64,000 nucleotides of DNA from Candidatus Calescibacterium sp. GTDB taxonomy: Bacteria > Calescibacteriota > Calescibacteriia > Calescibacteriales > Calescibacteriaceae. Below, piece after piece: positions 8,078 through 32,709 of the stretch. The stretch is from contig JAVVGL010000004.1 of NCBI GenBank assembly GCA_032249135.1, forward strand, positions 32,001-96,000, given 5' to 3'. The position numbers and the translations under genes were made by a program. The notes beneath the pieces were generated by a model. It did not search any database. It was given only the letters and a program-made list of their open reading frames with translations, and was not told where the DNA came from. Every line of letters starts with the position of its first letter. The stretch's first letter is position 1.

Positions 8078-8098
8078 AAAATGCTTTGTCGCAATCAT
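8078..8098 (+). repeat. AAAATGCTTTGTCGCAATCAT, exact inverted copy of 30502-30522 (putative element end)
   Basis: 21/21 reverse-complement identity to 30502-30522; the core GCTTTGYCGCAAT also occurs at 28801-28813. Confidence 0.85.
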
Positions 8099-25710: not shown

Positions 25711-27374
25711 GTGCTTTTGACCAAAACTTATTCTTTCAGAAATTTCAGAGAGAAATTTGATAAAGTTAATCCAACTATTTTGTTAGTGTTCCTTTTTATT
25801 ATTACCTTTCTCCCAAATATTATTGTATATAACCGAACACATGCCGCGGGAGATATAGCAGAATACATTAATAATCCCTTGAGAATCATATATGGAGAAT
25901 TACCTTATAGAGATTTTTGGTTGATATTTCCTCCCGGTGAGGTTTTTTGCCTGCCTTTATATATAAGGTATTTGGATTGAATGTTAATATCTTGCTTGCT
26001 TTGACAGTTTTCCTCAACTCCTTTATTAGTGTTTCTTCTTTTCTTGTAGCAAGGCAAATATTCAAGGACAATTTCTTTTCTTCAGTAGCTACTATTTTAG
26101 TTATCTTCAACGGTTTAAGACATTACGGAGGTTTTATTTATATACACGTGTATTTTTTATTTCTTCTTATATCTGCTTTCTTCCTTTTGAGATACCTAAA
26201 AGATGAAAAACTTACAAATCTGTTTTTAACAGGAGTATTTTTGGGTTTAGCTTCTTTTTTTAAGTTGTATGAGGTTGGGGCAGCTTCTCTTTCGTTCCTT
26301 TTATTGGTTCTTATTTGGGCAAAACTTAAAAAAAAGAAAATCAAATCCATCGCTACCATGCTTTTCGTCCTTTTTGGTGGATCATTTTTATTTCCTGTTA
26401 TTACCTCTATTATTTTGATAGATATTTGGAAAGAAATGTTAAGATGGGTATTGATAGAGTCTGTATTACATGGTACATCTATGAATTTGCCATACTTTAC
26501 TGATTCTCGTTGGTACTTAGATAGAATTTTAGAGGATTTCAACAGTATCAAAGGAGGGAATTACTACAAGATTAGGTTATTTCATGATATAGTCGGTCTT
26601 ATATACACTACAACATCATATCTTTTGCCTTTTATTATTTTAGCTACATCTATTTTTTATCTGATATATGGAAGATATCTGAAAAATGAAAGGTACATTA
26701 TAGTGCTTTTTTTACTTTGGGGATTTTTTACTTTTCCAAAATCTTTTGGTCGTTCTGATATGAGCCATTTGGTAATATCCATTAATCCATTATTTTTCCT
26801 CGTAGTCTTCTTTTTGTGGAAAAGTATGCAAGATTTCAATAAAAATTTATTCAATAAAGTTCTCAGGTCAGCATATGCTATAATAACTCTTTTACTATTG
26901 CTTTCGGTTCCACATTTTTTTATTTATATCGCATTTCAGCTGAAAACTTATCGTCATCCGGTTGAGGCAAAGTATGGAACTCTGCTTTTCAAAGATCATT
27001 CAGATGCGAAAAATGTAAATGCTGTTATCAAATATATTGATCAAAATACGAACGAAGGAGATTATATTTTTGTTACCCCATGGTTTGCTCCCCCTCTTTA
27101 TGCCCTAACTAACAGAAGAAATCCTACCTATTATGATTCGCTAATTGATCCTATTGTCCTGCCATCAGAGGAAAAGCAGTTAAAAATTTGCGATGATCTT
27201 CTACGAAAGAATACTAAACTTGTGATTCATTATCCTGATTTCGGATATAGTGCAGGACATTTTATGAGCTCTTGTCCAATGTTGCAGAAATGTATAGAGG
27301 ATAACTTTGATTTAGTAGTAAAATACGGAAATTACTGGATATATAAGAGGAGGGAAATAAGAAACATGGAATAA
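25711..27374 (+). pseudogene. GT-C/ArnT-PMT-like membrane glycosyltransferase, split by a 1-nt frameshift
   Basis: GELPYRDFWLIFPPGEVF (25711-25980) joins LPAFIYKVFG (25947-27374) if one T is added to the T6 run at 25943-25948. Confidence 0.7.
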
Positions 27375-27502
27375 GAGTTAAAGATATATGCAACAGGGCG
27401 AAAAATTATAGTAGTTTGTTTGTCCCTTTTGCGTTTTTTCTCGTCTAATTTTAAATTTCTGCTTTAAAAAATTTTTTCTTTTTGGAAACAAAATTCTGAC
27501 TT

Positions 27503-28801
27503 ATGGTGGTTTTTGCCTTTTTGTTTTTTGCTATAAATCTTACATTAGATGAGGCAGTAAAAATAGCTGTTGAAAATAATCTTTCAGTCTCTTCTCAAAG
27601 ATACTCTCTCAAAGATGTTGAATATACTGCAAAAGCTGCCTGGTCTTATGTGCTTCCAAGATTAGTTGTTGATTCGTCTTACAGAAGAAACCTTGAACTA
27701 CCGGAAGCTCAAATAGGTATGCAAAAAGTAAAAGTAGGAAAGCCAGATCAAACCCAAATTACTCTGTCTTTGGTTCAATCTCTACCTATTGATGGTTCTG
27801 TTTGGTACCTCAAAGAAGCTCAAAAGTATTCTTACGATTCTCAATCATACTCGTTTTTGGCTTTCAAGAACGAAATAATTTTCAGAGTTGTAAATCTTTA
27901 CATTACAATTTCTAAACTTTTGCTCTCTCAAAATATAGCAAAGGAAAATTTAGAGAGGATGAAAAAGCATTATGAGGTCGCTCAAAACCTTTTTTCTGCT
28001 GGACTTATTCCCGAAGTTGATCTCACAAGAATAGAAACATCTTTGTATGAAGCTCAACTTCAACTTAAAAATATAGAAATTCAGCTCCACCAGAACCTGC
28101 AAAATTTTCTTCTGATTTTGGGCAAAGATGATATAGATCCTATTCCTTCTCAATCTATTGATGAACTCATTTTTATTTTTGATCCTTTCGGATTTTTTGA
28201 CTCAATAACCCAAGAAAAGATAGATATAGAAAATTCTCCTGATATATCATCTATAAGATTTAGGGTTTTGCAATTGGATAGACTTTCAAAAGCTCAAAGA
28301 GGACAACTCTTCCCGCAAATATCTTTTGGTTTTTCTCTCATAAACTCTTTCGGTTCTTTTATTGAACAAAGGAATATACCCGTTTTATCTGTTGGAGCAA
28401 ATTTGACTTTTGATTTTGGTGGAACTTACCACAACTACCTTGCAGTAAAGCAAAGAAAAATATCAGTTGAGTTTCAACTTGAAGATTTGAAAAGACAAAA
28501 AATCAAAAGCTTGGAAATGGTTATTAAAGAATATGAACTTGTAAAAAGCAGACTTGAACTCGCTCAAAGCAGACTTGCATCAGCTGAAAAATCCTTGAAA
28601 TCAGCAGAGGAACTTTTCAGATATGGAAAACTAACTTCTGTTGACCTTATGGATTATGAGTTCCAATACGAAAACGCAAAATTTGACATCATATCAGCAA
28701 AAGCTGATTTATTACTCCTTATGTGGAGAACTATTTACTTGACAGGACAGCTAGAGCAGTTTTTCATATCAAAAAATCATGTTGGCAAAAAGTCTAACTA
28801 G
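27503..28801 (+). CDS. TolC family outer-membrane efflux protein
   Basis: LTLDEAVKIAVENN, LPRL, FSAGLIPEVD, FPQISF, YGKLTSVDL. Confidence 0.88.
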   Translation: MVVFAFLFFAINLTLDEAVKIAVENNLSVSSQRYSLKDVEYTAKAAWSYVLPRLVVDSSYRRNLELPEAQIGMQKVKVGKPDQTQITLSLVQSLPIDGSVWYLKEAQKYSYDSQSYSFLAFKNEIIFRVVNLYITISKLLLSQNIAKENLERMKKHYEVAQNLFSAGLIPEVDLTRIETSLYEAQLQLKNIEIQLHQNLQNFLLILGKDDIDPIPSQSIDELIFIFDPFGFFDSITQEKIDIENSPDISSIRFRVLQLDRLSKAQRGQLFPQISFGFSLINSFGSFIEQRNIPVLSVGANLTFDFGGTYHNYLAVKQRKISVEFQLEDLKRQKIKSLEMVIKEYELVKSRLELAQSRLASAEKSLKSAEELFRYGKLTSVDLMDYEFQYENAKFDIISAKADLLLLMWRTIYLTGQLEQFFISKNHVGKKSN

Positions 28802-29060
28802 CTTTGCCGCAATGAGAACGACCCCATTTTCAGGGCGGCCCTGCAAAGCCATCAGGACCTAACCTCATCGCTACCCCCTCCCACTTCCCTTGCACCATCA
28901 CAGGGCGCAAGGGAGAGAAGTCCCTCATACAGAACCTCCCAAGGAGAGGTATAGCGAAGGCTACCCTCAGAACTCGCCAGAATTTCTGTCCGCTTTCCGG
29001 ACCCCTCACAGGTTCCTTCCTCAGGTTCCCCTGCTTTTGGGTCTCTGGCTCACTCTGAGA
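28781..29060 (-). ncRNA. Putative omegaRNA/reRNA overlapping the tnpB 3' end (scaffold to 28801, guide from 28800 leftward)
   Basis: Abrupt GC-rich tract with hairpins 28886-28896/28904-28914 and 28837-28843/28853-28859; loop 28844-28849 is complementary to 28801-28806. Boundaries are inferred. Confidence 0.55.
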
Positions 29061-30517
29061 GCTTTTATTTGTTTCCATCAAAAATTTTTCCAAAAATTTC
29101 TCCAAAAATTTCTTCTCCTTCTTCAACCTCCTCAAATCCCTCTTTATTCCATTTGCTTTGTATTTGTTTTTTTCTTGATTCAACTTATTTCTCAATTCCT
29201 CCTCCATTTTCCCTAATCTCCATAATGCATATTGAATGTAAATCTGGCTTTTGAGAAGCTTTTTGTAGTTCTCTGGTATTTCTTCCTGAAAACCTAACGC
29301 TTTCCTACCTATAACATATGCTCCTGCTATATCTTTATCTATAAAATACTGCGGACAATATTTCATCATACCTATAACTGATGTGAAAGCTGGATTTACC
29401 TTCACTACCTCTATTCCTTCCTGAATTGCTAAGCTCTCTATCTTTTTCAGTATTCTCCTATAAGAGAAAAATTGTAGGATTTTTCTGAGCTTTGCTTTAC
29501 CATCCCCTCTCTTTCCTTTTGGGAGCTTTCCAATATCCTCAATTGCTATTGCTTTATTTTTTTCTTTTGCAAATTTTATAACCTCGTGAGCTATCAACCA
29601 CTCCTCATATTCTTTCCTATTTCTGCTTTTGTATTTCAAAAGATAAGAAAGATAGATTGATTTGTAGCTTTGCAAATTACCATCAGGAGAAACTTCTGCA
29701 AGAGCAAGATGGAAAGGTCTTGCATTCACATCTATTCCTATTACTCCCTTTGATTTCGTAATTGTTTGAGGGGGAACATCAAGAGAAAATCTGACAAATC
29801 CGTATATTTGACCATCTTTGAGTTTTAGCTCAACAGTGTAAGGGAATTGCTCTCCCGATAAGATTTTTGCCAAAAACAAAGCCCACTTATCTGATTTCCC
29901 ACTCAAATCTCTCTTTACCCTTGCTAATATAAATTTCCTGTTCTTCAAAGCTATTCTTAACAGAAGATTGTTTTTACCATTTTCAGCAGGGATAAATCTG
30001 AGATTAAGGTTTCCTTTGTGAGTTTTGTGCTTTGCGCCTATGCTTAACAAAGTTCCCTGCCTTTTTTCTTTCCATTTTCTCTTAAGCTCCTTCAATCTTT
30101 TTCCTTGAAGATAATTCTTTTTGAGCTTTTCAAATAGAGTTCTACCACCGAATATAAGCTTTTTTGGATTCTGTCCTCTTGCTTTGCAACTTTGAAAAAT
30201 CTCTCTTGCTTTCTCAACTGCACAATTTACATAATGAGAGTTGAGTTCTGGGAATTTCTGTCTTGTTATTGTGTAAGCTTGCAAAGTGGTAAAACCCTCA
30301 AGAAGTCTCTTGTATGAAAATCTTACAGCAGAAGAGAAACTTCTCATAAGTTTCAGGATTTGTTCTTTCTCTTCCCTATTTACAACGAGTTTGAAACTTG
30401 TAGTTATGAACATATAAATTAAACAAATTGTAATAATTGATTTTGGCTTAAAGCGGAATTTTGTAAAATTTTTGAATTTAGGGAAGAAATTATAATTTCA
30501 GATGATTGCGACAAAGC
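28801..30517 (-). mobile_element. Non-autonomous TnpB-carrying element bounded by ~13-15-bp terminal inverted repeats
   Basis: GCTTTGCCGCAAT (28801-28813) and ATTGCGACAAAGC (30505-30517) match 12/13 as an inverted repeat. The only internal gene is tnpB, and the element sits antisense between co-oriented tolC and GH31. Confidence 0.6.
28830..30413 (-). CDS. tnpB: TnpB-related RNA-guided endonuclease (IS200/IS605/IS607 accessory type, zinc-finger-less, 527 aa)
   Basis: LMRSFSSAVRFSYKRLLEG N-terminus; RuvC-I GIDVN, RuvC-II IAIED, VNPAFTS, RuvC-III DKDIAGAYVIGRK. Confidence 0.88.
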   Translation of the reverse strand: MFITTSFKLVVNREEKEQILKLMRSFSSAVRFSYKRLLEGFTTLQAYTITRQKFPELNSHYVNCAVEKAREIFQSCKARGQNPKKLIFGGRTLFEKLKKNYLQGKRLKELKRKWKEKRQGTLLSIGAKHKTHKGNLNLRFIPAENGKNNLLLRIALKNRKFILARVKRDLSGKSDKWALFLAKILSGEQFPYTVELKLKDGQIYGFVRFSLDVPPQTITKSKGVIGIDVNARPFHLALAEVSPDGNLQSYKSIYLSYLLKYKSRNRKEYEEWLIAHEVIKFAKEKNKAIAIEDIGKLPKGKRGDGKAKLRKILQFFSYRRILKKIESLAIQEGIEVVKVNPAFTSVIGMMKYCPQYFIDKDIAGAYVIGRKALGFQEEIPENYKKLLKSQIYIQYALWRLGKMEEELRNKLNQEKNKYKANGIKRDLRRLKKEKKFLEKFLEKFLMETNKSSQSEPETQKQGNLRKEPVRGPESGQKFWRVLRVAFAIPLLGRFCMRDFSPLRPVMVQGKWEGVAMRLGPDGFAGPP

Positions 30518-30552
30518 ATTTTTAAATCATAAAATGTGTAAAATCCCTTTTT

Positions 30553-32709
30553 ATGATTGGAGTTTTGATGATAAATAGAGTTCATTTTGTTTTACTTCCT
30601 TTTCTTATCATTTCTTTCGGTCAGCTTACTTCCTGCTCTTCCTCTGCTCCTTCTAAATTAAGTGAAAATTACAAAGTTGTTCAGAGGTTAAATCTTATAA
30701 GAGTTGGAACTTCAAACATCAAATGGGAGCTTTACCTTGGTACAGGCGGGTACCAAAAATTAGAAGAGAAAGTTTTGAGTTCTTTTGAGTTTTCTCCCTC
30801 TGGTATTGAATCTGGTATTGAAAATCAGTTTGTTTCAGCTAAATTAGAGAAAAAAGACGATTTCGCTGTTATTTATGTGAGATCAAAGCTTTACGACTTT
30901 GATTTCAAGCAGGATATTTTACCTTTTATAGAACTTGAATTTCTATGTGGTGATAAAGAAAGATTTTTCGGTTTCGGCTCGTGGGCAGATTATGCCGACG
31001 CAACAGGAAGGAAAAGACTGATATACACACAAGAACAGCATGTTGGAGGAGAAATGACAGATGATGGAAAAATAGTAAATCAGCCATGGCCTTTTGGTGA
31101 ATTACTAACTTATTTTCCTGTTCCATTTTTTGTTTCTTCTCAAAACTATGCATTTTTTGTCACAGGATTTGACCCTATCGTTTTTTCCATATGTGAAGAT
31201 GGGAAAGTATGGAAAGTCAAGGTTTTCAATAATTCCGCCACATTTTTTGTTTTTGGCTGGAAAGAAAAACCCCTTGAAGCAATTAAAAAATTTACCGGAA
31301 TTGTAGGCAGACAAAAAACTCCACCAATATGGGCTTTTGGAAACTGGATAGATGCGATAGGAGGTCAGAAAAAAGTAGAAAATACAGCTCTTTTTTTGAG
31401 AGAAAATAAAATTCCTTCTTCTGCTATATGGACGGAAGATTGGGCAGGTGGTTTCAGGAGAACAGAAGATATATACACAATAGAAGGTTGGGATACAGAA
31501 CCATCTTATGAGCTTTATCCAGATATAAAATCTTTATCATCAAAACTTCACTCATTAGGATTTAGATTTTTGGGGTATTTCCACCATTTTGTCGGAAAAA
31601 ATAAAAAAGCCTTTTCATACTTTCAGGAAAACGAACTTTTGCTAAAAGCAAAAGATGGAAAAACAAGATTTGTTTTCTTTATACCAGAAGCTCAAGATGT
31701 TGGTTTGCTTGACCTTGAAAACCCAAAAACTTGGGAAGCTATGAAATCTATAATGAAAAGTGTGGCAAGTTTGGGCTTTTCCGGATGGATGGCTGACTTT
31801 GGAGAATGGGTAACTCCTGATATGATTTCATTTTCAGGTAAAACAGGTTGGCAACTTCATAACCTTTATCCGTATCTTTGGGCAAAACTCAACAGAGAAT
31901 TTTGGGAAGAGTTTTCTCAATCTGATTTTGTCTTCTTTTCAAGGTCTGGATTTACTGGTTCTTGGGTGTTTTCTCCTGTTGTTTGGCAAGGAGATCAGAA
32001 CACATCTTTTGAAAGACTTGACGGTTTAGGTTCTGTTATACCATTGATTACATCTTTGGGATTTTCAGGGGTTCATAGTGTGGGACCTGACATAGCAGGG
32101 TACACATCGGGGGTTTTGAGTCAAAATTCAGATAAAGAGCTTTATATAAGGTGGACATCTTTGTGCGCCTTTTTGCCAATATTCAGAACTCATCACGGAG
32201 TTACACCAGAAAAAAATTGGAGATTTACAAAAGATGATGAAACTCTTTCTATTTTCAGAAAATATGCTCAAATTCATATAAAACTTGCTCCTTTCTTTTT
32301 CGGCATCGCAAAAGAGGGAGAACAAAAAGGGTATCCAGCGGTAAGACATATATTTTTGGAGTATCCAGATGTTGTTCAGTTCATACCTGAAAAGTTAGAG
32401 GTTATAGAACAAGAGTTTCTGCTTGGAGGAAAGATGTTAGTTGCTCCAATTGTCAGGAGAGGTGAAACAAAGAGAGAAGTTTTCATACCACCGGGAAAAT
32501 GGGTTGATTTTTTCTCTCAAAAAGAATTTGATGGGGAACAAAAAGGAAAATTTTTAGAAGTTGAAATACCTTTGGGAGAGATTTTTGTTCTCGTCAAAAA
32601 AGGCGAGTGCATTGAAATTTTTGACCCGGTTCTAGATACATTAAATCAAACTCAAAATCCTGAAATAATAGGGATAGATGATGTGCAGATAAAGAAAGTT
32701 TGTTTTTGA
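30553..32709 (+). CDS. GH31 alpha-glycosidase lipoprotein (YihQ-related)
   Basis: LTSC lipobox, GRQKTPPIWA, WMADFGE (nucleophile), WQGDQ (acid/base), DIAGY, ELYIRW, FRTHHG. Confidence 0.88.
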   Translation: MIGVLMINRVHFVLLPFLIISFGQLTSCSSSAPSKLSENYKVVQRLNLIRVGTSNIKWELYLGTGGYQKLEEKVLSSFEFSPSGIESGIENQFVSAKLEKKDDFAVIYVRSKLYDFDFKQDILPFIELEFLCGDKERFFGFGSWADYADATGRKRLIYTQEQHVGGEMTDDGKIVNQPWPFGELLTYFPVPFFVSSQNYAFFVTGFDPIVFSICEDGKVWKVKVFNNSATFFVFGWKEKPLEAIKKFTGIVGRQKTPPIWAFGNWIDAIGGQKKVENTALFLRENKIPSSAIWTEDWAGGFRRTEDIYTIEGWDTEPSYELYPDIKSLSSKLHSLGFRFLGYFHHFVGKNKKAFSYFQENELLLKAKDGKTRFVFFIPEAQDVGLLDLENPKTWEAMKSIMKSVASLGFSGWMADFGEWVTPDMISFSGKTGWQLHNLYPYLWAKLNREFWEEFSQSDFVFFSRSGFTGSWVFSPVVWQGDQNTSFERLDGLGSVIPLITSLGFSGVHSVGPDIAGYTSGVLSQNSDKELYIRWTSLCAFLPIFRTHHGVTPEKNWRFTKDDETLSIFRKYAQIHIKLAPFFFGIAKEGEQKGYPAVRHIFLEYPDVVQFIPEKLEVIEQEFLLGGKMLVAPIVRRGETKREVFIPPGKWVDFFSQKEFDGEQKGKFLEVEIPLGEIFVLVKKGECIEIFDPVLDTLNQTQNPEIIGIDDVQIKKVCF

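Follow-up and report, generated by a model that had tools for sequence, protein, structure and literature searches.

The element at positions 28800-30518 of the window (the whole 64,000-nt stretch of Candidatus Calescibacterium sp. DNA that was analysed) is in our view, with a probability of about 0.72, a non-autonomous element of the IS5 family that generates IS903-style 9-bp duplications, carries a TnpB with an embedded omegaRNA as cargo, is mobilised in trans, and uses its cargo for homing or retention. The features of the locus are as follows (positions are those of the window).

27503-28801, plus strand: tolC-like outer-membrane efflux gene (Pfam OEP, E 1.8e-42)
28784-28799, minus strand: presumed guide segment, 16 nt of host DNA past the right end and antisense to the tolC 3' end, assigned from TnpB biology
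28800-29065, minus strand: probable omegaRNA (reRNA) scaffold, GC-rich (55-58% versus ~33% around it)
28800-30518, minus strand: whole non-autonomous element, 1717 bp including both repeats, with a further constant base at each end
28801-28815, minus strand: right-end terminal inverted repeat, whose outer 6-7 nt would double as the 3' strand of a helix or pseudoknot with an RNA hairpin loop
28830-30413, minus strand: tnpB ORF, 527 codons (527 aa), the only gene of the element
30503-30517, minus strand: left-end terminal inverted repeat, GCTTTGTCGCAATCA in the sense of tnpB, 104 nt upstream of the tnpB ATG
30519-30532, minus strand: left-flank target signature, with the 9-bp target ATTTAAAAA (tnpB sense) at 30519-30527, a spacer base at 30528 and TTAT at 30529-30532
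30553-32709, plus strand: GH31 glycoside hydrolase gene (Pfam Glyco_hydro_31 domains), downstream of the insertion

The stretch 28801-30517 is bounded by the terminal inverted repeat GCYTTGYCGCAAT, with GCTTTGCCGCAATGA at 28801-28815 and TGATTGCGACAAAGC ending at 30517, and the two arms pair at 13 of 15 positions, as an earlier, sequence-only reading of this DNA had proposed. The other copies in the genome terminate in this repeat as well, and both ends are present in 64 complete elements, i.e., the window copy and 63 of the 80 metagenome loci. The copies align up to the repeats and the homology among them stops there, which answers the question about the boundaries of homologous copies that the same reading had raised. 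Its extent of 28801-30517 was right as to the repeats but one constant base short at each terminus: in the sense of tnpB, a T precedes the left end (position -1 in 55 of 56 distinct left flanks) and another T follows the right end (position +1 in 49 of 50 distinct right flanks). The 13-mer GCTTTGYCGCAAT has three occurrences in the window, where shuffling predicts 0.10 and none of 100 shuffled sequences had as many; the third occurrence, at 8083 (C4:40083), is a solo remnant. Genome-wide, the 13-mer has 22 matches when up to one mismatch is allowed: eight mark the termini of tnpB copies (C4:60801, C14:57106, C42:157 and C51:567 on the right; C4:62505, C21:32184, C37:4296 and C41:10389 on the left), two bound an IS5-like element (C24:2292 and 3328), and the remaining 12 consist of the solo remnant, the end of an IS5-like fragment (C20:21634) and 10 unclassified matches. 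Deletion derivatives were also found, one of ~190 bp at C37 and one with a joint 28915->30443 in run X1. The label "MITE-like", previously given to the window element, suits the ~190-bp derivatives, but not the element itself, which is 1.7 kb and coding, whereas MITEs are short (under ~0.6 kb) and non-coding. A pattern search of five genomes with ends of the G001:C128 type matched that one locus only, and a simple inverted-repeat finder gave no convincing ends at many distant loci, including those in Sulfurihydrogenibium, Thermus, Meiothermus and Firmicutes.

The same genome (G000) contains a 1049-bp element at C24:2292-3340 that has both repeats and the flanking direct repeats AAATGAATT, and its ORF corresponds to an IS5-family DDE transposase (transpos_IS5_2, E 8.9e-25; DDE_Tnp_1, 31 bits versus a cut-off of 23). 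A transposase gene with the same ends, which had been suggested as something to look for, therefore exists, and the guess that the ends are IS5/IS903-like agrees with this partner and with the 9-bp duplication described below. C24 is the only IS5-like copy assembled in G000, compared with at least five TnpB copies, and it is degenerate, as it lacks the N-terminal ~55-70 profile positions and has an internal TAA. An intact 326-aa relative (P0272) from metagenomes, 91% identical and belonging to a cluster of 141 sequences, aligns to positions 4-288 of the profile, whose length is 289. With 95 bits, the partner transposase stays under the NCBIfam IS5 equivalog cut-off of 140 bits. By eye, the first ~45 nt of the left end of the window element resemble the transposase-proximal end of the C24 element, and at C24, a single case, TTAT sits one base further from the end than it does at the TnpB elements. 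No IS5-like copy was found in G001-G003, although G001 holds TnpB copies. Searches of G000 (87.5% complete) recovered neither Y1_Tnp nor the Resolvase domain of serine recombinases, and the element lacks an internal tnpA, as had been claimed. Judging from the shared ends, a C24-type IS5 element is most likely what moves the window element; the features that speak for the IS5 family are the ends shared with a DDE_Tnp_1 element, at C24 and in a Thermocrinis pair (see below), together with the 9-bp duplication.

The 64 complete elements correspond to 54 distinct flank pairs, which we count as distinct insertions. A 9-bp target-site duplication, called as a direct repeat matching at 8 or more of 10 positions, flanks 27 of the 54; the other 27, the window copy included, have none. 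The earlier statement that a clear duplication is lacking thus holds for the window copy but not for the other copies that have it. Many of the insertions that lack a duplication have one flank in common with another locus, identifying them as recombinants between copies. The insertions lie in one orientation beside the one-sided motif TTAT-N: at positions -15 to -12 of 56 distinct left flanks, T is found in 52, T in 55, A in 43 and T in 41, and no mirrored motif was found in 50 distinct right flanks. Due to this single orientation, the presumed guide after the right end would match the motif-adjacent DNA of the empty site.

In the window copy, the left end follows TTAT-G-ATTTAAAAA and the right end precedes AGTTAGACT. 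In the sister genome G001, tolC adjoins GH31 without an element between them, and AGTTAGACT follows a second TTATG in this empty site, which means that the host has lost 5 nt net and that no duplication is present. The empty tolC-GH31 junction foreseen by the sequence-only reading was found there, with five bases more than predicted. When 28801-30517 is excised, the tolC stop changes from TAG to TAA and 35 bp are left to the GH31 start at 30553, reproducing both earlier statements; in the TAG, the TA is host sequence and the G is the first base of the element, and the TolC product ends in ...KKSNS* in G001 and in ...KKSN* in the window. The window copy was at first suspected to be a recombinant or an assembly chimera, because it has no duplication and its right flank is common with locus L075. 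This was ruled out by L123, a 152-kb metagenome contig that has both window flanks, and by the adjacency of tolC and GH31 in G001; moreover, the junctions expected from a recombination origin were not found in the genome and the loci. No contig joining across 28800/30518 was found in four read runs, a result that is uninformative on the absence of an empty allele.

A similar arrangement is found in another lineage. In the Thermocrinis genome G041, GAGRYTGTTCTAAAAAT has 68 matches, versus three for a control pattern, and bounds 1642-bp TnpB elements, derivatives of 184-308 bp that qualify as MITEs, and a 934-bp DDE element. The latter encodes a 278-aa DDE_Tnp_1 protein with homology to the transposase of C24 (24% identity, E 4e-6). 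Thermocrinis therefore shows the same pairing of TnpB and IS5-like elements, with ends that are different but match each other. The Thermocrinis-type duplications range from 9 to 12 bp while the motif stays anchored to the right-end junction; such a spread is unusual for a single DDE transpososome. All three IS5-like copies in G110 have a 9-bp duplication that is preceded, always on the same end, by GTCA, GTCA or GTAA, and no match to the window TnpB family was found in that genome at E <= 1e-10, indicating that an analogous one-sided motif arises without TnpB. The TnpB elements of G062 have ends (CTGTAAAAAAGTGTAAAAA) that differ from those of the IS5-like element in that genome, where a search for a partner found none, and G072 contains tandem pairs of transposase and TnpB.

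The tnpB ORF matches TIGR01766 (49 bits, cut-off 32) and guided_TnpB (E 6.5e-14, with a score below the cut-off of that model), and source annotations label the protein "IS605 OrfB family transposase". The protein core spans residues 1-450 and includes the RuvC residues D228, E292 and D361, and the last 77 codons (451-527) overlap the RNA gene. Alignments (28 sequences for the motif comparison and nine for the genome scan) show an invariant D228, a nearly invariant E292 and, in the nine closest sequences, an invariant D361; GiDlN and ivlEnL of the window protein align with GVDLG and IQIENL of Cas12f. The subclade of the window keeps the RuvC-III Asp (DKDIA), and most of the more distant relatives have His there. 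A C4 zinc finger was not found: 13 residues separate NPAFTS from DKD, and 0 of the 28 aligned sequences have room for Cys4. An AlphaFold2 model (pLDDT 88.8) has Cas12f (E 1.5e-11), Cas12k, the ISDra2 TnpB 8exa (E 7e-7) and Fanzor2 as its top Foldseek matches. The protein is thus a zinc-finger-less TnpB with an intact D-E-D triad, as had been read from the sequence, with a predicted Cas12f/TnpB fold. Among 61 distinct copies, diversity at the three codon positions is 0.055/0.048/0.227 for residues 1-450 and 0.076/0.068/0.096 for residues 451-527; with third-position diversity 4-5 times that of the first and second positions, the core is under strong purifying selection.

On the minus strand, the RNA region folds with -132.5 kcal/mol (z -5.85), the plus strand having a z of -3.2. 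Across subfamilies with proteins 47-51% identical to that of the window, the columns of its alignment average 71% identity, and RNAalifold predicts 58 pairs, 15 of them with compensatory changes. An Rfam scan of 27000-32000 at E <= 1 returned nothing on the GC-rich block and a chance match elsewhere (Ref84, E 0.39). Taken together, this conserved structured RNA, which overlaps the tnpB 3' end and is predicted to stop at the right end of the transposon, is probably an omegaRNA. In both families, a loop 14-15 nt past a conserved GGTTAG is complementary to the terminus (GCTTTG/CAAAGC, GAGGCTG/CAGCCTC and GAGGTTG/CAACCTC), and the counterpart of the presumed guide in the G001 empty site has TTATG before it. 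The summed contig depth over 28813-29025 in two RNA libraries is ~10-40 times that of the tnpB body, with two DNA runs being flat; as contig depth cannot rank parts of a gene, nor show RNA ends or strand, this gives a weak hint of expression of the RNA region.

These features may be combined into the following mechanism. An IS5-like transposase, as the shared ends suggest, would move the element in trans, and the transposase clade would insert it one way beside an asymmetric motif (TTAT-N in the window family, ..G(T/G)CA in the genomes of the order Aquificales that were examined), so that the right end would always come directly after the motif. TnpB would read this transposase motif as its TAM, the guide would consist of the duplicated 9 bp running on into the flank and would match unoccupied alleles, and cutting of these alleles would lead recombination to copy the element back in, so that it homes or is retained. 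In the right-end repeat, the outer half would have two roles, as a site for the transposase and as a strand of the RNA helix next to the guide, and this dual use would make the RNA loop co-vary with the transposon ends between lineages. That the asymmetric motif as TAM, the 9-bp duplication as guide seed and the dual-use repeat form an RNA-guided homing module on a cut-and-paste IS5-type transposon is a tentative proposal, to which we give somewhat less than even odds; this geometry was not found in the main text of Altae-Tran 2023 or of Kojima 2026. Counted against the joint reading were the degenerate IS5-like copy in G000 and the failure to find one in G001-G003, the TTAT shifted by one base at C24, the mismatched ends in G062, the insertions without a duplication, and the 9-12 bp spread in Thermocrinis.

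An autonomous element, in which the RuvC TnpB, with its RNase-H fold, is itself the transposase or places the insertion through TAM binding, would account for the one-sided motif and the high copy number, and would fit the scarcity of IS5-like copies relative to TnpB elements in G000, the TnpB copies of G001 that have no IS5-like match, the unlike ends in G062, and a motif that keeps its place at the right-end junction even when the duplication varies in length. However, the IS5-like elements of G110 show the same duplication and one-sided motif without TnpB (3 of 3), in two phyla the ends co-vary with those of a DDE element, tnpB-less MITEs have spread, and it is established knowledge that TnpB is dispensable for IS605-type transposition (section 5.1 of Kojima 2026, PMC13565253); we consider autonomy highly unlikely. 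Hardly credible is that this is an ordinary solo tnpB of the IS200/IS605 (IS1341-group) or IS607 type, whose repeat is a coincidence or a hairpin feature: the source annotation points that way, and an internal segment can pair with the right terminus, which recalls a subterminal hairpin to some degree, but the inverted repeat lies at both extreme ends of 64 elements, half of the insertions have duplications of a kind that these families do not make according to sections 5.1 and 5.2 of Kojima 2026 (PMC13565253), searches of G000 found neither a Y1 nor a serine recombinase, and a DDE element has the same ends. Membership of either family was thus rejected, being contradicted by the duplications and the inverted repeats.

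The remaining alternative accepts the IS5-like transposase as the mover but sees in TnpB and its RNA decaying cargo, or a system for RNA-guided repression or defence, instead of a homing device. It can invoke the His that more distant relatives carry at RuvC-III, as described for RIIIr-4 in the main text of Altae-Tran 2023 (PMC10691335), and the debated benefit of homing to a cut-and-paste element (section 6.2 of Kojima 2026, PMC13565253). On the other hand, the TnpB core is under strong purifying selection in the 61 distinct copies, the D-E-D triad is intact in the subclade of the window, the RNA is conserved with compensatory changes, and the right end always abuts the motif, which is the geometry that a guide needs. 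This alternative seems unlikely to us, and the IS5-family homing element remains the preferred reading.

Homing by the TnpB and omegaRNA of IS200/IS605 elements (ISDra2, ISGst) was reportedly described by Karvelis in 2021 and Meers in 2023. As in those elements, the guide RNA scaffold overlaps the tnpB 3' end and stops at the right end, the presumed guide is the flank, and the presumed TAM is the transposase target motif. Unlike in ISDra2 and ISGst, transposition makes a duplication, and the motif is consequently 10 nt from the left end instead of adjacent to it; the duplicated 9 bp would be guide positions 2-10, the occupied site would keep a TAM followed by a 10-nt partial match, and the ends are inverted repeats instead of asymmetric hairpins. 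The IS903 group has short terminal repeats that begin with (G)GCTTTGT. The window family resembles this group in its 9-bp duplication, (G)GCTTTGT-type repeats and DDE_Tnp_1 transposase, and differs from it in the asymmetric target motif and in a partner transposase that falls under the IS5 equivalog cut-off. ISL2 and IS1031 are groups of the IS5 family. Both are named, along with IS630, as DDE partners in Kojima 2026 (PMC13565253).

The sequence-only reading had assumed that bacterial TnpBs ride IS200/IS605 or IS607 elements. This is out of date, since the main text of Altae-Tran 2023 (PNAS, PMC10691335) describes TnpBs in DDE-transposase elements with inverted repeats (branches DDE-1 to DDE-6), as well as solo TnpBs whose ends are nearly identical to those of transposase-bearing elements and which were inferred to be trans-mobilised. 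DDE-associated and trans-mobilised solo TnpBs were hence already published in 2023, and the window element adds instructive detail; full-text searches of the literature found no paper on its particular family. As far as that main text allows comparison, the window element shares with these TnpBs a position inside an inverted-repeat element with the tnpB 3' end within 250 bp of the transposon end, and differs from DDE-1 to DDE-6 in that transposase and TnpB reside in separate elements, except for the G072 tandems; set against these branches, its duplication is 9 bp, IS903 style. The likeness to the RIIIr-4 clade, as described there, rests on two features, the missing C4 zinc finger and the Asp-to-His change at RuvC-III in most of the more distant relatives, and the subclade of the window differs in keeping the Asp. 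Fanzors, too, are TnpB-family nucleases that travel as cargo, in their case on eukaryotic DDE transposons that have inverted repeats and make duplications. According to section 6.2 of Kojima 2026 (PMC13565253), their short sequence-specific duplication (TA, TTAA) is recognised as a portion of the TAM, with the 3' copy in the RNA scaffold; here, in contrast, the duplication is 9 bp of arbitrary sequence that would lie in the guide, and the motif is outside it.

In the parts of the Kojima 2026 review (PMC13565253) that deal with them, DDE-plus-OMEGA elements in prokaryotes are treated as rare and unexplained. The open question that the present family addresses is of what use an RNA-guided nuclease is to a transposon whose movement produces a duplication and a double-strand break. 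With its many copies, MITE derivatives, candidate partner transposases and an empty site in a sister genome, the TnpB/IS5 family is a natural system for this question, for which the TAMs (TTAT-N here, ..GKCA in Thermocrinis) and the guide register are predicted. The compact, thermophilic, zinc-finger-less TnpB, with a core of ~450 aa, may also interest genome-editing work, and "IS605 OrfB" genes of this kind should not be filed under IS200/IS605. If TnpB cuts unoccupied copies of the chromosome, insertions would be driven to fixation in polyploid cells, provided that the hosts have several chromosome copies. If true, this would account for the TnpB derivatives outnumbering their autonomous partner.

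The element at window 28800-30518 (minus strand, which is the tnpB sense; 1717 bp from repeat to repeat) carries tnpB as its sole gene, in agreement with the sequence-only reading, which had noted the lack of tnpA. The two 15-mers which that reading took as termini lie where it placed them, and they match as an inverted repeat at 13 of 15 positions. The features on which the argument turns are the following.

Window 28830-30413, minus strand: tnpB-like open reading frame of 527 codons
G000 (the window's own genome) C24:2292-3340: IS5-like element of 1049 bp, with the same repeat at both ends and AAATGAATT on both flanks
G000:C37:4146-4310 (L016): MITE of ~190 bp, a miniature derivative of the TnpB element

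The 527-codon frame scores 49 bits against TIGR01766 (cut-off 32), 39.2 bits against TIGR01765, the N-terminal domain, which is under the cut-off of 47.25, and E 6.5e-14 against guided_TnpB, also under that profile's own cut-off. Pfam gives a weak Cas12f1-like_TNB match, and a DUF2192 match above cut-off (residues 354-443, window 29085-29354, E 3.4e-7) that covers the RuvC-III and coiled-coil part. DUF2192 is listed in Pfam as "uncharacterized protein conserved in archaea", and this family may consist of TnpB-derived fragments. The three RuvC acidic residues recognized earlier are present as D228, E292 and D361, within the motifs GIDVN, AIEDIG and DKDIAGAYVIG, and the Cys zinc finger is indeed absent, because just 13 residues separate NPAFTS from DKD. 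In an alignment of 28 sequences, D228 does not vary and E292 hardly does; the RuvC-III position is Asp in the closest clade and His in the majority of the remoter relatives, and no relative has room for a zinc finger between the motifs. An AlphaFold2 model of residues 1-450 made with this alignment has a mean pLDDT of 88.8. Its top Foldseek match is Cas12f (E 1.5e-11, TM ~0.5), with Cas12k, ISDra2 TnpB (8exa, E 7e-7), ISFba1 TnpB and Fanzor2 ranking below, and in a profile search of PDB sequences RuvC-I and RuvC-II align with the Cas12f motifs. With Asp or His at RuvC-III and no zinc finger, the family fits the description of the TnpB major clade RIIIr-4 in the text of Altae-Tran et al. 2023 (PMC10691335). 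It comprises 1582 clusters at 50% identity (E <= 0.001), and the 80 loci kept from a genome scan are nearly all labelled as thermophilic lineages (Thermocrinis, Hydrogenobacter, Sulfurihydrogenibium, Thermus, Meiothermus, Thermovorax), one being Candidatus Calescibacterium nevadense.

The repeats are the true ends of the element. Their core, GCTTTGYCGCAAT, occurs three times in the 64-kb window (0.10 expected from shuffles), and in the 51 contigs of G000 (87.5% complete) this 13-mer is the outer limit of every other element copy found, namely a near-full, 90% identical copy on C21, partial copies at contig ends (C5, C41, C51, C14 and C42), and the C37 miniature. The latter is made up of ~40-115 nt of the right end and ~75-110 nt of the left end, with TTAT at the usual distance from the left end and no duplication; a similar deletion joint (28915 to 30443) is seen in the DNA run X1. 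A metagenome scan found 154 relatives, and 80 of these loci were retained. The left repeat is present in 75 of the 80, usually 107 nt ahead of the ATG, while the remaining five are truncated at the gene start; the right repeat lies just past the stop codon in ~70 of the 80. A solo 17-nt left-end terminus, TGCTTTGTCGCAATCAT, is located at window 8082-8098 with no element behind it; the sequence that follows is a host gene, of which C42 has a paralogue, and this terminus was probably left behind by a copy that has since been lost.

In the window, the element is flanked by tolC (OEP domain) on one side and a GH31 gene on the other. The empty tolC-GH31 junction that had been predicted is present in the sister genome G001, in which homologues of tolC (95% identical) and GH31 (91% identical) are direct neighbours and the element is absent from the junction. 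The empty site reads ...AAGTCTAATTCATAATTTTTAAATCATAATTATG... on the G001 plus strand, and the occupied site in the window reads ...AAGTCTAACTA, the element, and ATTTTTAAATCATAAAATG. The empty site contains, in the tnpB sense, two tandem motifs, TTAT-G-ATTTAAAAA and TTAT-G-A(A/G)TTAGACT; the left end of the element lies after the first 9-mer and its right end before the second, so that the host has undergone a net loss of 5 nt (TTATG) and this copy has no duplication. The TTAT-N rule (TTAT followed by any base in the left flank) nevertheless holds at each junction taken singly. The same structure would equally result from a standard insertion if 14 bp beside one end were then deleted. tolC has lost its last codon, and its stop TAG consists of host TA and element G. 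Both flanks are also carried by L123, an independent 152-kb metagenome contig, and the arrangement is therefore not an assembly artefact. The TnpB match of the L123 allele is 1698 nt instead of the usual ~1580, so there must be an extra stretch of ~117 nt inside or beside its tnpB.

The absence of a clear target-site duplication, as noted in the sequence-only reading, thus applies to the window copy, but not to the family as a whole. Counting the window copy, 64 elements with both ends and sufficient flank represent 54 distinct flank pairs, and in 27 of these the two adjoining 10-base stretches, one preceding the left end and one following the right end, agree at 8 or more positions, revealing a 9-bp duplication. 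According to logos of 56 distinct left and 50 distinct right flanks, the layout in the tnpB sense is TTAT, N, nine bases and T, then the element from GCYTTG to CAAAGC, then T and the same nine bases. T is found at -1 in 55/56 left flanks and at +1 in 49/50 right flanks, and both bases are therefore part of the element. The TTAT motif occupies -15 to -12 (T 52, T 55, A 43 and T 41 of 56). Its mirror image is absent after the right-hand duplication copy in the 50 right flanks, which makes the motif one-sided and bound to orientation. Of the 27 pairs that lack a duplication, many have one flank in common with another locus (L046 with L058 and L099; L069 with L050), the pattern that recombination between copies would give. 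Left and right flanks are reshuffled among metagenome contigs (L045/L057/L093, L046/L058/L099, L069/L050), which indicates that copies often recombine with one another and that genomes in these hot-spring populations are rearranged as a consequence.

A transposase gene with the same ends, for which the sequence-only reading had suggested looking, is found at C24:2292-3340, and it encodes an IS5-family DDE enzyme. Its 243-codon open frame matches transpos_IS5_2 (E 8.9e-25, profile positions 70-288 of 289) and DDE_Tnp_1 (31 bits, cut-off 23). This copy is degenerate, with a missing N-terminus and an internal stop. P0272, a metagenomic protein of 326 aa that is 91% identical to it, covers profile positions 4-288; it scores 95 bits against the IS5 equivalog cut-off of 140, and is therefore a distant member of the IS5 family. 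All 141 sequences of the P0272 cluster are located on contigs of at most 1109 bp, as is typical of a multi-copy insertion sequence. No Y1_Tnp or Resolvase domains were found in G000 (87.5% complete).

The same relationship is observed in a second lineage, which belongs to another phylum. Thermocrinis-type TnpB copies are 1642 bp and have ends GAGGCTGTTCTAAAAAT; the Thermocrinis genome G041 (1.3 Mb) contains 68 matches to this type of end versus 3 for a control pattern, and these delimit full copies, MITEs of 184-308 bp and one 934-bp transposase element. The 278-aa protein of the latter matches DDE_Tnp_1 (47.8 bits, cut-off 23) and IS5_2 (E 7e-19), and the C24 transposase is a homologue of it (24% identity, E 4e-6). 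The end sequences are quite different between the two lineages, yet within each they are common to the TnpB and IS5-like elements. Such lineage-wise sharing is the signature of mobilization in trans, presumably by the IS5-like transposase. The finding of the sequence-only reading is real, and it was interpreted correctly. The IS5-like transposase is present in 21 of 121 sampled genomes of the Thermocrinis order (Aquificales). It should be noted that in G062 the TnpB elements (L253, L256) have other ends, CTGTAAAAAAGTGTAAAAA, and no partner transposase was identified; together with L180 and L196 they form another subfamily of the TnpB family. The shared-ends rule is thus not valid for the whole protein family. 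After the right end of CTGTAAAAAAGTGTAAAAA-type elements a conserved ...CAGTTTGG(T/A)TGACCAGG is seen in three unrelated hosts. G072 has two loci, L258 (G072:C2:240580-245106) and L261 (G072:C2:341456-345985), at which a TnpB element is followed head to tail by a degenerate IS5-like one, with 9-11 bp between the two; GATCCTTAT flanks the L258 pair taken as a unit, and its reverse complement forms the spacer. These pairs could be composites, or result from insertion beside an existing end. Locus L132 (1339-2945; the same element as G001:C128, L018) contains a 51%-identical TnpB element whose ends are GAGGTTGTTCTAAAAATCCC and whose 9-bp duplication is TGCAACTAA; directly beyond its right end lies a further copy of this element that deletion has reduced to 179 bp.

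The target motif could belong to TnpB or to the transposase. The 14 Thermocrinis-type elements with a clear duplication have duplications of 9 bp (2), 10 bp (8), 11 bp (2) or 12 bp (2), which start right after a motif ending in CA (TTGGCA, TTGTCA, CAGACA, etc.) in 11/14 flanks in the tnpB sense, or 12/14 once L205 and L207 are read on the opposite strand. Three MITEs have the same CA-ending motif before the duplication, as does, on one side, the IS5-like element L207. In G110, another genome of the order, in which the TnpB family has no match at E <= 1e-10, each of the three IS5-like copies (1010 bp) is accompanied by a 9-bp duplication that follows GTCA, GTCA or GTAA, always at the same end. 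Because these copies have a one-sided motif in a genome with no match to this TnpB family, we ascribe the asymmetric target preference, which is specific for orientation, to the DDE transposase clade and not to TnpB, a view based on a small sample of 3 + 1 autonomous copies in the order. At C24, the single Calescibacterium-type IS5-like copy, TTAT lies one base further out.

The right end appears to encode an RNA. Window 28800-29065 has 55-58% G+C (genome ~33%) and its tnpB-sense strand folds at -132.5 kcal/mol (z -5.85; other strand, z -3.2); no Rfam family matches this block. Ten aligned right ends, including those of subfamilies whose proteins are 47-51% identical to that of the window, have a mean column identity of 71%, and RNAalifold predicts 58 pairs, of which 15 show compensatory changes. 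In a set of 61 distinct copies, the three codon positions have diversities of 0.055/0.048/0.227 over codons 1-450 and of 0.076/0.068/0.096 over codons 451-527; the evenness of the latter implies that the tail is constrained as nucleic acid, and the frame through it stays open in every subfamily. In both families, the last conserved hairpin has a loop (14-15 nt past an invariant GGTTAG) whose sequence is the complement of the outermost 6-7 nt of the right end, so that the outer half of the right-end repeat would double as a strand of a predicted guide-adjacent helix or pseudoknot. In 37 of the 38 distinct Calescibacterium-type ends, loop and terminus read GCTTTG/CAAAGC, and in the remaining one the terminus is CAAAAC; the 37 Thermocrinis-type ends include GAGGCTG/CAGCCTC (19), GAGGTTG/CAGCCTC (5) and GAGGTTG/CAACCTC (2). 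Judged from these sequences, the RNA loop has changed in step with the transposon ends between lineages. Summed contig depth, a poor measure, is roughly 10-40x that of the tnpB body at 28813-29025 in two hot-spring RNA libraries and flat in two DNA runs, which is only a hint of expression.

The anatomy of the element, its duplication, shared ends and empty site, and the conservation of protein and RNA are observed features, and a mechanism can be proposed that connects them. The IS5-like transposase would bind the repeats and insert the element with a 9-bp stagger, in a single orientation, beside TTAT-N. Transcription of the RNA would run through the right end into the flank, so that the guide would begin with T and the 9 duplicated bases and continue with more flank. 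In an unoccupied allele, the sequence matching this guide would sit immediately 3' of TTAT-N, which TnpB would read as its target-adjacent motif (TAM), and cleavage followed by recombination with an occupied copy would restore or spread the element. The occupied site would keep the TAM and match the guide over just 10 nt up to the left repeat, and would be expected to be spared.

The concept of DDE-associated TnpB is already published, as the texts of Altae-Tran et al. 2023 (PMC10691335) and Kojima 2026 (PMC13565253) make clear; the text of the latter names ISL2, IS630 and IS1031 as partners and calls such elements rare in prokaryotes. In the text of these two papers we found neither the separate-partner arrangement (the supplements may list the clade), nor the 9-bp duplication as guide seed, a one-sided motif belonging to the transposase, or the dual use of the right-end repeat. 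The family described here provides a well-populated natural system for asking what role TnpB has for a DDE transposon.
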